Assembly: GCA_963758525.1 (NCBI GenBank)
Contig: CAVWVQ010000003.1
Span: 3,808,001 to 3,872,000, forward strand
DNA length: 64,000 nt
Direction of reading: 5' to 3'
Source of the DNA: an uncultured Phycisphaerales bacterium
Lineage (GTDB): Bacteria; Planctomycetota; Phycisphaerae; Tepidisphaerales; Tepidisphaeraceae
The translations under genes were made by a program, and so were the position numbers. This document shows positions 13,998-22,799 of this stretch, one piece after another. The stretch's first letter is position 1; every line of letters begins with the position of its first letter. The notes under the pieces are model-generated. The model saw nothing but the letters and a program-made list of their open reading frames with translations. It had not been told where the DNA came from and made no database searches.

Positions 13998-14113
13998 GAA
14001 ATCCCCAATGCCCAATGGCCAACAAAATCCCAAGCCGCAATGACCCATGTAAGAACACCAGCCTTTGGCCTTGGGGTTTGGTGCTTTGTTGGCCATTGGG
14101 CCTTGGACATTTC
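13998..14113. repeat. Intergenic inverted repeat (CCCAATG/CATTGGG type)
   Basis: Perfect 17-bp core GCCCAATGGCCAACAAA (14010-14026) versus TTTGTTGGCCATTGGGC (14085-14101), with imperfect extension on both sides. Confidence 0.75.
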
Positions 14114-16788: not shown

Positions 16789-17895
16789 GTGGCCGACGCC
16801 GACGACGACACCTTCCCTCTGCTCGAACGCGAAGACGCGCTCGTTGAAGAGTTGCGCTTAAACGTCCCAAAAGCCCTCAAGGAGTGGGACGAAGAGGCGA
16901 TCCATGCCGCGCGCGTCGCAACCCGGCGCCTCAAGGCAGCGCTCACTCTGATGAAGCCGGTCTTGTCGAGCGACCAGCACAAGCCATTTGGAGGCACGCT
17001 CCGCAAGCTCCGCCGCCGGCTTGGCCCATTGCGCGATCTCGATGTCATGATCACGCACCTGCAAGAAATGCGGCCGCGCAATCAGCGCCTCGGGCCGGCC
17101 CTGGTCTGGCTGATCGAACAATTGCAGCAGTCGCGCGTCGCAGCCCGCGAGCATTCCCAAAAACGCGCTTCGGCGGGTCACGTGCTGGCGCGGCTCGGAA
17201 CCTGGTGGGACGTGCGCGAGGAAGTGCTCGCCGCGCATGAAGCGATCGACTCATTGATAGCCGAACAACTCCACCTGCAACTCGACTCGTTTGCCGAGCG
17301 CGCCGATCGCCTTGTCGGGGCATCAACCCACGCAGGCCCGCCCAAGCAGCCTGCGATCGATCCTCACGAGCTTCGGATCGCCGGCAAGTCGCTCCGCTAC
17401 ACGCTGGAAATGGCAGAATTGGAAGGGCACGAGCTGCCAAAGAAAATCACCAAGGCTTTCAAGAAAATGCAGGAATCCCTGGGTCTCTGGCACGATTACG
17501 TCGTGCTGAGCGAGCGCGTCATGCAGCTTTCGCTTGAGGCACTGCTCCCGCATCACAACGCGCCCCTGCAGGCCGACGTGCTCGACGTCGCCAAGAACCT
17601 GCTGGGCCGATCCACCACGCACTTGAAAGAGTTCGCCTCCCTCTGGTCGCTGCGCGGCCCGGAGCTGTCGGCCAGCATCCGCCAGCATTTCCCCTTGTCG
17701 CGCCCGGTCAGCGCGACAGACGCAGCTTCACCGGTCGCGCCGGAAGCGACCCCCATTGTCGCGCCGCCGGCCGATCACGTTGCCACGCCGGCGCCAGCGC
17801 CCCTCACCGCACCGAAAACGGATCCCGATCCGCCTGACTCAGCAGAAACTCCAGCCCCGGCAGCGCCTGTTCCAGACGCTGCTTCAGTCGTTTGA
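16789..17895 (+). CDS. CHAD domain protein with Pro/Ala-rich tail
   Basis: EAIHAARVATRRLKA, LGPLRDLDV, HELRIAGKSLRYTLE and QESLGLWHD. Confidence 0.9.
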   Translation: MADADDDTFPLLEREDALVEELRLNVPKALKEWDEEAIHAARVATRRLKAALTLMKPVLSSDQHKPFGGTLRKLRRRLGPLRDLDVMITHLQEMRPRNQRLGPALVWLIEQLQQSRVAAREHSQKRASAGHVLARLGTWWDVREEVLAAHEAIDSLIAEQLHLQLDSFAERADRLVGASTHAGPPKQPAIDPHELRIAGKSLRYTLEMAELEGHELPKKITKAFKKMQESLGLWHDYVVLSERVMQLSLEALLPHHNAPLQADVLDVAKNLLGRSTTHLKEFASLWSLRGPELSASIRQHFPLSRPVSATDAASPVAPEATPIVAPPADHVATPAPAPLTAPKTDPDPPDSAETPAPAAPVPDAASVV

Positions 17896-17953
17896 GGGCG
17901 ACGCGCTCGCTGTTGGAATGCAGCGTGCACACCACCGTGATCCCCGCGGCCGC
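17799..17953. repeat. Direct repeat copy 1 (duplicated nif3 3' end / CHAD gene 3' end)
   Basis: 155 bp identical to 19032-19186 except one base (17930 versus 19163). Confidence 0.95.
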
Positions 17954-17997
17954 CGCGCGAAAGGCGTCATGATGAGCGGCTCGCTCTGCGACCTGAC

Positions 17998-18612
17998 TCA
18001 CGGCGACGGCGGTGGATCGGCACACATGATCCTTCCCAGCAAGTTGGGTTCGGCAGCGAGCAGCGGTCGGAACCCAAGATCATTCTGAACTTGAACCGCC
18101 AGTGCCGTTCCGCGAATTTCCTCTTGTCTGATGAAGCGGATGATTTGCTCAACTGCCCAGACGACGGCACCCCCGTCCACTCGCGCCGGAGCATAAAAAC
18201 GTGCTCGCTGAAGAAGCGGGTTCCATGCAGAGCGCACCAGGATCGGATGACCGTGCGGAAGGAAGATCAGCGGAAGCTGGACGTGGCAAAGCTCCAACCC
18301 TCGTTCATGGAGGTTCGCCTGCAATATGTTGGAATAAGCGTTCTCAACGCTGTTCCAGCCGCGCCCCTGCGAAAGAAATCTCGCGGTGACAAAGTAGATG
18401 ACGTGGCGGCAGTGGACGATGCCTTCCCGCAGCGCCTCGTAGGCGTCTTGGCCGGCCGGATAGTGATGCTGGTCAAACCAAGGAGAGAACCTCGCGTTCT
18501 GCAACGCCTGGAAGACGGGCAGCACCAGTCGATCTCGATCCTCGGCGCAGTGTGATAGAAATGCATGATGGGTACATCGAGGGAGGCTCCTAACATTCCA
18601 ATCGCCGATCAT
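17998..18612 (-). CDS. Stand-alone TIR domain protein
   Basis: AFLSHCAED (beta-A), PWFD, GIVHCRHVIYFVTARFL and WNSVE with the putative catalytic Glu. Confidence 0.85.
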   Translation of the reverse strand: MIGDWNVRSLPRCTHHAFLSHCAEDRDRLVLPVFQALQNARFSPWFDQHHYPAGQDAYEALREGIVHCRHVIYFVTARFLSQGRGWNSVENAYSNILQANLHERGLELCHVQLPLIFLPHGHPILVRSAWNPLLQRARFYAPARVDGGAVVWAVEQIIRFIRQEEIRGTALAVQVQNDLGFRPLLAAEPNLLGRIMCADPPPSP

Positions 18613-18621
18613 TCCGAATGC

Positions 18622-18942
18622 TCAATGGTGCAACGCGGGGAACGGGGGTACGCCCGCCTTTGCGGGATGCCCGTGGGTCACCGCGGCAATGAGCTGCTCC
18701 CCGCTCTGCGTCGGGGTGGCAAAAATAGTGTTCTGGATCTCCATCACTCCCGCCTTGGCCATCTCTTCGCATGCCAGCTTGATTTCACCAAGGCTGTATT
18801 TGCCGTTCAAAGCTGAATACAGCGATTGAAATGACAAGCCATAGCCCGATTTGCGCGTAGGATCAAATTGAGGAAAAGCCGCGAGGATATCGCGGTAAAT
18901 CGCGGGCAAACTCTCTGCATATTCGGCGGTGATTGGCATCAA
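18622..18942 (-). CDS. Small hypothetical protein, possible winged-helix fold, directly upstream of the TIR gene
   Basis: 106 aa, 9-nt gap to TIR. LSFQSLYSAL...YSLGEIKLACEEMAKAGVMEI...ATPTQSGEQLI resembles a helix-turn-helix plus wing. Confidence 0.7.
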   Translation of the reverse strand: MMPITAEYAESLPAIYRDILAAFPQFDPTRKSGYGLSFQSLYSALNGKYSLGEIKLACEEMAKAGVMEIQNTIFATPTQSGEQLIAAVTHGHPAKAGVPPFPALHH

Positions 18943-19031
18943 TTAACTCCTGGACGCGCTCGTCCCTTGCCAGCCGCTGGCGATTCTACCTCGAAGCCTC
19001 GCGACGGTCGAATGCCTGCGCGAAAATCAAA

Positions 19032-19186
19032 GCCCCTCACCGCACCGAAAACGGATCCCGATCCGCCTGACTCAGCAGAAACTCCAGCCCCGGCAGCGCC
19101 TGTTCCAGACGCTGCTTCAGTCGTTTGAGGGCGACGCGCTCGCTGTTGGAATGCAGCGTGCAAACCACCGTGATCCCCGCGGCCGC
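19032..19186. repeat. Direct repeat copy 2 (3' end of the intact nif3 gene)
   Basis: Matches 17799-17953 at an offset of 1233 bp. Confidence 0.95.
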
Positions 19187-20126
19187 TGGCGCAGAGCGTC
19201 GTGATGACGCATCTCGCCGGTCAGATACAAATCGGCTTTCGCGGCGATCGCGTCCGTGAGCATCTCGCCGCATGCGCCGGCGCAGACTGCCGCGCGGCTC
19301 ACTGTTCCCTCGACTGGTCCTGCCACCAGCAGGTGCTCGATCGCCAGTTCCCGCCTGAGGCGATCGAAAAGCACCGCCCGCTCGACCGGTGGATCAAGCA
19401 CGCCAAGGCGTCCCTGCCCCGGCCCCTCCGGCGGAGCCGCGAGTTGGTTCAAATCAAACGCGGGCTCTTCATACGGATGCGCGCTGCGAAGAGCGCGGAT
19501 TACTTCAGCCGCTTTGTCGATGAGCAGAACCGTTTCCAGTCTGACTTCAGTTGCCTGTTCCAGACGCCCGCTTTGTCCGACCGCGGGATTGCTCCCCTCT
19601 TCGCCAAAAAACGTCCCGGTCCCCCGCGTCCGGAAGCTGCACGAAGAATATTTTCCAATCCGCCCCGCGCCCGCGGCGAACAAGGCCTCGCTCACTTCCT
19701 CGACCCGCTCAGCCGGCACAAAAGTAACGAGTTTGTAATGCGTGGCCTCTTTCGGCGCGAGCCGTAACGGATGACATTCGGCCAGCCCAAGGACATCGCA
19801 TAACACGTCATTGGTTCCACCCTCCGCGACATCCAGTGCCGTGTGGGGCGAATAAATTGCCAGGCCGCGACGAATCGCATCGTGGATCAGTCCGCGTCCA
19901 TCGATGCGTTTGATCGCCGCAAAAATCGGCGGATGATAGGCAATTACGCCATCGCAATTGGCCGCCTGCCCCTCACGCGCGACCGCTTCGGTGTAGTCAA
20001 TCGTCAGCAAAACCCGCGTGACCGGCTGAGCAGGATCGCCAACGAGCAGTCCCACGTTGTCCCACCCCTCCGCGAACCGGGAAGGCGAATTTGTTCCATT
20101 GCCGCGACCAGTTCCTTGAGTTCCAT
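19037..20126 (-). CDS. Nif3-like dinuclear metal-centre hexameric protein (YbgI/YqfO, with PII-like insert); frameshifts near 20088 and 19190
   Basis: MELKELVAAMEQI, AEGWDNVGLLVG, YHPPIF, HTALD, YKLVTFVP, AHPYEEPAFD, TGEMRHHDA and LHSNSER. Confidence 0.92.
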
Positions 20127-20184
20127 TGCTGTAATGTAAAGGGTGGGCGAGCCGTGAGAAAGGTACAGTGAGAACGCGGGGGTG

Positions 20185-20379
20185 GGCGTGCCCTGAATTT
20201 AGGGAAGCAGTATTTTCCCCCCTCCCCGGCAGAATCCGGGGCGGCGCGAGTACGCTCTGCCCCGGCGTGCGGGCGATACACATCGACCCACCAATCACGC
20301 CGGGACAAAGCGTACTCGCGCCGTCCCGGATTCTGCTCGGGGAGGGGAAAACGCTTCCTCCCTAAATTCCGGGCACGCC
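20185..20379. repeat. Long intergenic palindrome (about 85-bp arms, 26-nt loop)
   Basis: 20185-20269 pairs with 20296-20379, e.g. GGCGCGAGTACGCT versus AGCGTACTCGCGCC. Confidence 0.9.
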
Positions 20380-20507
20380 GCCCCGTTTCGATCGGCGGGA
20401 AATTTTAGACTTTGCCCGATTTGTCGTTACTCTTCCTCGACTCTTGGAACGGCGCTGCGACGGGCTGCGCCGCCAGATGCGCAGTCCTATGGATATTGGA
20501 AAGAGGC

Positions 20508-22649: not shown

Positions 22650-22672
22650 TCCACGACTTTTTTGGCTTCCGC

Positions 22673-22781
22673 GTGGCACGGGCGTCCCGCCCGTGTTAGC
22701 GACTCAAGATTGAAAAGAGATGTCGAAAGCAAGAATGGTTTTACTGCTGCGCCGCTAACACGGGCGAGACGCCCGTGCCAC
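22673..22781. repeat. 109-bp REPIN-like inverted doublet (copy 2)
   Basis: GTGGCACGGGCGTCCCGCCCGTGTTAGCG ... CGCTAACACGGGCGAGACGCCCGTGCCAC. Confidence 0.85.
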
Positions 22782-22799
22782 GCGGCACAATTCGTTCAG

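Follow-up and report, generated by a model that had tools for sequence, protein, structure and literature searches.

A stand-alone TIR gene and a small gene encoding an acidic winged-helix protein form a real, undescribed two-gene TIR module that is present across phyla. In the window, i.e., the whole stretch of 64,000 nucleotides that was analyzed, both genes are on the minus strand, with the partner gene at positions 18622 to 18942 followed by the TIR gene at positions 17998 to 18612. The conserved catalytic TIR protein was not found without its partner and the partner can outlive the loss of the TIR protein, which makes a toxin plus an antitoxin the simplest reading. We propose, at slightly below even chances, that this conserved and patchily distributed module is a toxin-antitoxin or abortive-infection pair in which the partner holds the TIR protein inactive. 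At 0.95 kb and two genes, it is a compact candidate defense system.

Open reading frames and repeats were identified anew, and the two co-directional genes, separated by 9 nt, are indeed the whole content between two 155-bp direct repeats. The partner encodes 106 aa if translated from a TTG codon, or 105 aa from an ATG at position 18939 behind an AGGAG motif, and the latter is more probably the start. A sigma-70-like promoter match (TCGACC-N17-TAGAAT, positions 18983 to 19011, minus strand) precedes the partner, which is the first gene, but one such match against 0.4 expected by chance is a weak signal. The lower GC bias of the pair relative to its flanks was also recovered: GC at third codon positions (GC3) is 0.64 to 0.65 in the two genes versus 0.73 to 0.74 in the neighboring CHAD and nif3 genes. 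Compared with 1,658 genes that were called over 2.5 Mb of the host genome, these values fall in the lowest 3 to 4%, a percentile that is probably overstated, since the gene caller favors host-like genes and misses the TIR gene at this very locus. Both genes are under purifying selection, with pN of 0.11 to 0.22 versus pS of 0.63 to 0.80 in five of five comparisons and dN/dS of 0.06 to 0.13 where dS is unsaturated.

The TIR protein (204 aa) matches the Pfam family TIR_2 above the cutoff (E = 7.6e−11), and its predicted structure (pLDDT 89) resembles the TIR domain of TIRAP (Z = 13.0; rmsd of 2.7 over 137 residues). The motifs noticed originally in the sequence, FLSH (residues 18 to 21), WFD (45 to 47), and WNSVE (86 to 90), are all present, and the C-terminal helical extension corresponds to helices at residues 147 to 196 of the model. 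Among solved structures, the best matches by both sequence and Foldseek were AbTir (7uxu, 7uwg, and 8g83) and Cat1 (9mud), and profile comparison aligned Glu90 with the glutamate of WTNYE in AbTir and that of WDE in Cat1. This glutamate, the catalytic Glu in helix C and part of an invariant RGWxxxE motif, is kept in all 80 paired copies, together with Gly85, Trp86, Arg69, His16, and Trp152. Homology with AbTir and Cat1 predicts NAD+ cleavage by the TIR protein. Cys13, His16, and His70 are near-invariant in the family, are absent from the third clade described below, and may form a metal site. Profiles of known defense systems in PADLOC and NCBIfam gave only generic, subthreshold TIR matches. 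The family has about 100 close relatives, and a search at E = 1e−10 returned no longer (fused) forms, which is weak evidence that there are none.

The small partner, which the original prediction had described as winged-helix-like, does adopt this fold in its model (pLDDT 88), with its closest structural matches in the N-terminal domain of Rio2 (Z = 10.9; rmsd of 2.8 over 85 aligned residues) and TubR (Z = 9.9; rmsd of 2.4 over 84 aligned residues). Its family is unnamed: no match was found in Pfam, PADLOC, NCBIfam, or PHROGs, and the best Pfam score was that of HTH_35 (E = 0.11, in 3 of 78 members). A viral cluster of the ESM Atlas (feature score of 0.92) was considered as a lead but not confirmed, with PHROGs matching 1 of 86 members and BFVD giving no match at E < 0.001. 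About 95 close relatives are known, and clustering at 50% identity yields 156 representatives, of which the best 150 are all at most 206 aa long, with no long fusion among them. The family is acidic, with a median pI of 5.3 and a net charge of −2, and the putative recognition helix is variable and rich in glutamate. Conserved positions include the near-invariant Tyr7, Tyr15, and Arg29, a PTxxG wing, and a C-terminal proline. The acidic character and the lack of a shared upstream palindrome across 43 upstream regions (simple scan for perfect arms) suggest that the partner acts by binding protein rather than DNA.

The partner adjoins the TIR gene at 54 of 55 TIR loci in GTDB, the exception (L050) carrying a truncated TIR, and in metagenomes 24 of the 28 loci with a partner gene also have the TIR gene; three of the other four end at a contig edge and the fourth (L070) keeps a TIR tail only. 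A matched genome-wide search of 402 genomes with broad profiles for both proteins found the partner at all 56 TIR loci (54 times whole and twice cut down to its tail by the edge of the contig), and the TIR gene at 55 of 65 partner loci, after one DtxR false hit had been dropped and tandem copies merged. One of these 55 loci belongs to a third, distant clade, and 7 of the 10 orphan partner loci represent a single Latescibacterota clade. Pairing at the GTDB, metagenome, and matched-genome loci rules out chance adjacency. Regarding the independent occurrence of homologs, raised in the original prediction, no intact TIR gene was found without the partner, and the partner does occur alone. The usual layout has the small gene first, with 9 nt as the commonest gap, and the order is swapped in 5 of 55 loci. 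No third conserved gene was found; recurrent neighbors are lineage-specific housekeeping genes. The other alternative raised there, a fragment of a known larger system, was likewise not supported. Small, tight, and co-directional genes that move together are also the layout of type II toxin-antitoxin systems.

The way in which the module decays is central to its interpretation. Several loci (L070, L181, L251, L164, and L189) carry remnants of the TIR tail or truncated TIR genes beside the partner. This asymmetry, where no intact TIR gene was found alone and the partner sometimes is, is what a toxin-antitoxin pair would show, though the independent losses are few. They amount to perhaps 5 or 6 events, and we estimate the probability of such an outcome by chance at about (2/3)^5 to (2/3)^6, i.e., 0.13 to 0.09, given that the TIR gene is a target twice as long. 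One locus (L220, genome G556), at a contig edge, weighs against the toxin-antitoxin reading, as an intact TIR gene follows a partner gene cut by an intron-like sequence. The interruption (L220:1-143; G556:C93) looks, by its motif, like the 3' end of a group II intron; Rfam gave no hit. In the proposed mechanism, the TIR protein would cleave NAD+ unless bound and kept inactive by the small acidic winged-helix protein, and phage infection or stress would remove this inhibitor and free the TIR protein. The toxicity of the free TIR protein is suggested by the loss pattern, and its release upon infection would follow the general analogy with toxin-antitoxin systems that act in defense.

The same two proteins could be wired in the opposite sense, which we regard as unlikely, though less so than the other alternatives. 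The TIR protein would be harmless alone, and the winged-helix protein would recognize a phage protein or nucleic acid and nucleate TIR assembly and NAD+ cleavage, like a split TIR receptor. It is the partner and not the TIR gene that is duplicated, in tandem or fused copies, at 5 of 83 loci (L016, L020, L028, L029, and L075), as expected of sensors, but this also fits the dosage of an antitoxin. The partner is also the more variable of the two proteins, with identities down to 16% versus 30% for the TIR protein, again as expected of sensors, and AbTir and Cat1, the closest solved bacterial TIR proteins, are reported to act as filaments. Such a mechanism leaves unexplained why an intact TIR gene is not found without its partner when the reverse occurs.

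The pair is found in Planctomycetota, Latescibacterota, Gemmatimonadota, and Spirochaetota, and none of the 55 GTDB loci of the TIR family is from Proteobacteria. Its presence is very uneven: hits came from 1 of 400 evenly sampled Planctomycetota, from 34 of the 251 genomes in the order to which genome G439 belongs, from 22 of the 151 in G438's phylum, and, with the partner as the sole query, from 11 of the 251 in G440's order. Phyla are interleaved on a tree of the TIR proteins of 59 full-length pairs, from which broken and partial copies were left out. The divergence of the two proteins is correlated (Mantel r = 0.52 versus a maximum of 0.16 upon shuffling), which shows their co-inheritance only and not their binding. 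In the third clade (L248:2263-3165; G636:C106), a winged-helix gene is paired with a shorter TIR gene, whose product keeps RGWxxxE and lacks the C-terminal helices, beside a restriction-endonuclease-like gene.

TIR genes with a single adjacent partner are known from other systems, and the comparison with these bears on the novelty of the module. One likeness is with Thoeris types I to XI and the predicted two-gene TIR operons of Yirmiya et al. 2025 (10.64898/2025.12.03.692087), where a stand-alone TIR protein also has one adjacent partner. The effectors named in the text of that paper are enzymes, membrane proteins, or DUFs, and the words “winged,” “helix-turn-helix,” “HTH,” and “Planctomycet” do not occur in that text. 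In contrast, the partner here is a nonenzymatic acidic winged helix, and it is the only recurrent partner; no Thoeris-type effector (SIR2-SLOG, Macro-TM, caspase, or another enzyme or membrane protein) was adjacent, a comparison that covers the effectors named in the text of the paper. The TIR systems TIR-I to TIR-IX of Escherichia coli (Wang et al. 2024, PMC11350192) likewise consist of one or two genes and are reported to depend on the catalytic residue and to act by abortive infection. The partner domains named for them are TM, AAA, TPR, and DUF4238 instead of a winged helix, a contrast that covers these named partners. Unlike AbTir and Cat1, which carry coiled-coil or CARF control domains, the TIR protein of the module has a helical extension of its own at the C terminus and a partner encoded by a separate gene.

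If the module works as proposed, its nearest functional parallels would be the type II toxin-antitoxin systems that degrade NAD, namely RES-Xre, NatRT (PMC11535050), and MbcTA, each a small two-gene operon that combines a protein antitoxin with an NAD+-cleaving toxin. The fold of the toxin differs, being TIR for the putative toxin of our pair and RES/ART in the known systems, whose antitoxins are Xre-type DNA binders. The literature searched gave no account of a TIR toxin that is paired with a protein antitoxin. The original prediction had called the system unrecognized, and this stands: no description of the pair was found in the literature searched, which included the available text of PMC7159879, PMC9503650, and 10.1101/2025.09.30.679545, although figures and supplements of bioRxiv papers could list it.

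A signaling role as in Thoeris, where the TIR protein would sense the phage and make an ADPR-derived signal bound by the winged-helix protein as effector or regulator, seems improbable to us. According to the text of Yirmiya et al. (10.64898/2025.12.03.692087), about 30 kinds of effectors are encoded together with a TIR protein in two-gene operons, and the near-invariant Tyr7, Tyr15, and Arg29 of the partner could line a ligand site. Yet the partner has no enzymatic or membrane domain and is acidic, as opposed to the positively charged signal pockets mentioned in that text. The TIR protein scores poorly with the PADLOC models of ThsB (E = 0.0096 to 0.017) and with the NCBIfam model of ThcB4 (18.4 bits versus a cutoff of 220), and at the examined loci no other effector accompanied this TIR family. 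As had been stated at the outset for the window, the partners of Thoeris, CBASS, Pycsar, and Argonaute systems are lacking: neither they nor any cyclase, Argonaute, reverse transcriptase, or STAND NTPase (CBASS, Pycsar, SPARTA, TIR-retron, and TIR-NLR) recur among the clustered open reading frames of 84 loci or the 148 + 31 scanned neighbors.

As for defense islands, one clade of Latescibacterota and Gemmatimonadota is located in them, but most copies lie among housekeeping genes, and any enrichment would be patchy. Among the 148 nearest called neighbors, a defense, toxin-antitoxin, or mobile gene was identified at 6 of 44 loci (RadC, WYL, Fic/DUF2442, Mrr/IS, or DUF559) and at none of the other 38, these being raw counts. 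Since the gene caller missed low-GC genes, 124 further open reading frames were listed, and 31 of them, picked by eye, were scanned. This second pass added genes for AbiEi, type I and II restriction-modification (RM), HNH, PIN, HicB, and PDC-S01, most of them at loci of Latescibacterota and Gemmatimonadota. In the clade mentioned above, the module is surrounded by AbiEi, type I and II RM, HNH, HipA, PIN, and PD-T4-4/AriA-like genes. In one Latescibacterota clade, the partner stands alone at a defense hot spot with a type IIG RM gene, HipA, DpdA, UvrD plus a nuclease, and PD-T4-4/AriA-like ATPases; genome G761 has three copies of it, and in G813 it follows a remnant of the TIR tail.

At these Latescibacterota loci (L191 [G761:C10:60000-78000], L250 [G839], L251 [G813], L168, and L171), the orphan winged-helix gene and its flanks are repeated or fixed. 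The gene anchors a variable array of defense and toxin-antitoxin genes beside a gluconolactonase gene, an arrangement that resembles a cassette array.

The housekeeping surroundings of most copies, and the sites held across relatives, weigh against the toxin-antitoxin reading, as they also fit a domesticated role. In Planctomycetia, the pair lies directly behind dnaK, usually before a Clp ATPase gene (L008, L025, L043, L044, L047, L049, and L075), and this site is occupied by TIR genes of two different clades. In one Latescibacterota lineage (L011, L014, L016, L017, L020, L022, and L051), the pair is found beside nadC, encoding the quinolinate phosphoribosyltransferase of NAD+ biosynthesis, and these copies are probably one insertion. 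Both the site between dnaK and clpB and that beside nadC are stable across related genomes. No copy of the pair was found on viral contigs, phages, or plasmids, where one search gave four unrelated TIR genes. All this would suit a small stress or NAD+ homeostasis unit without a role in defense, but the very patchy presence, the many unrelated insertion sites, the cross-phylum spread, the frequent decay, and the clade in defense islands render it rather improbable.

Autoregulation through an operator is usual among type II antitoxins, and the failure of the simple palindrome scan to reveal such a site is a further point against a type II system. It also counts against a partner that binds DNA and keeps a toxic TIR protein in check solely by repressing transcription, a reading that we hold to be very improbable: TubR, MarR, and PadR-like DNA-binding proteins are the closest folds of the partner (Z of about 8 to 10) and promoter-like hexamers lie directly upstream, but the protein is acidic with a variable recognition helix and is encoded downstream of the TIR gene in the five loci with swapped order.

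The direct repeats at the locus derive from the neighboring nif3 gene. The two copies (positions 17799 to 17953 and 19032 to 19186) are identical at 154 of 155 positions, extend to about 177 to 187 bp with mismatches and one gap, and have no further copy in the host genome. Translated on the minus strand, both correspond to the last ~50 codons and the stop of nif3 (DUF34; positions 19037 to 20076, minus strand). The right copy (19032 to 19186, minus strand) is continuous with the rest of nif3, and the left copy (17799 to 17975, minus strand) is a second 3' end made of 155 near-identical and ~22 diverged bp. The left copy begins ~20 bp past the TIR stop codon and overlaps the 3' end of the convergent CHAD-domain gene (16789 to 17895, plus strand), with the stop codon of nif3 within the repeat overlapping the end of CHAD. 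An apparent 1-nt deletion at about position 19188 puts nif3 out of frame; the base is present in one independent contig (depth of 3), and the frameshift is likely an assembly error.

In relatives, neither cassette gene occurs within 1.5 kb of nif3 at 28 nif3 loci (a count that excludes genome G004), and CHAD lies directly beside nif3 at 12 of them, including both genomes of the same genus, whose 12-kb nif3 regions lack the pair. Given this empty site and the duplicated nif3 3' end, we conclude that the pair inserted here and that the end of nif3 was duplicated. A duplicated target 3' end and an empty site in relatives are hallmarks of integrative elements at gene 3' ends; there is no integrase or transposase between the repeats, where only the two genes are found. 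No joint of the excised or empty form was seen in read-derived contigs, which are sparse over the locus. The repeats are a property of this one insertion and not of the family: of 83 loci, 7 were too short to test, and close same-strand repeats flank the pair at only 2 of the other 76 (L019, 241 bp, 78% identity; L027, 78 bp, 94% identity).

A bolder form of the toxin-antitoxin reading, which we put forward tentatively as a distinct possibility, is that the pair is a new kind of TIR toxin-antitoxin system, in which the winged-helix protein, its fold put to a new use, would be the dedicated inhibitor of a constitutively active TIR NADase, would double as infection sensor, and would have spread as a minimal cassette without integrase. 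The bacterial TIR enzymes known so far become active in response to a phage trigger or a nucleotide signal, or through a fused sensor. A TIR protein kept inactive by a small protein from another gene would bring a new control logic for TIR NADases. Such a pair would also provide a natural inhibitor, a protein that specifically blocks the catalysis or assembly of TIR enzymes. We did not find this type of control described in bacteria, and the binding site of the inhibitor could inform work on plant and animal TIR proteins such as SARM1. The module is a candidate defense system from phyla whose immunity is little studied (Planctomycetota and Latescibacterota), and screens of defense islands would mostly miss it because it usually lies among housekeeping genes.

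Other elements of the host genome (G000) were noticed as well. It holds 64 other or overlapping close repeat pairs, and the 14 inspected were mostly RAYT transposases, MITEs, and REP-like units. A loose end at position 19039, considered as a second insertion site, turned out to be a host MITE, inserted at 19039/19040 of the window in one contig of run X1. This element has 143 bp, the ends GGGTG...CACCC, an internal hairpin, and apparent target duplications of 8 to 9 bp, and across the genome it has 66 exact matches and 87 near ones (e.g., C1:608-750); its near-identical copies suggest recent activity. Long intergenic inverted repeats with arms of 43 to 56 nt, probably REP-like, occur in the window at 20180 to 20384, 22669 to 22785, and 13998 to 14113. 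Elsewhere in the same genome (C3:1896975-1898688), another gene has its own 3' end repeated three times downstream of itself.
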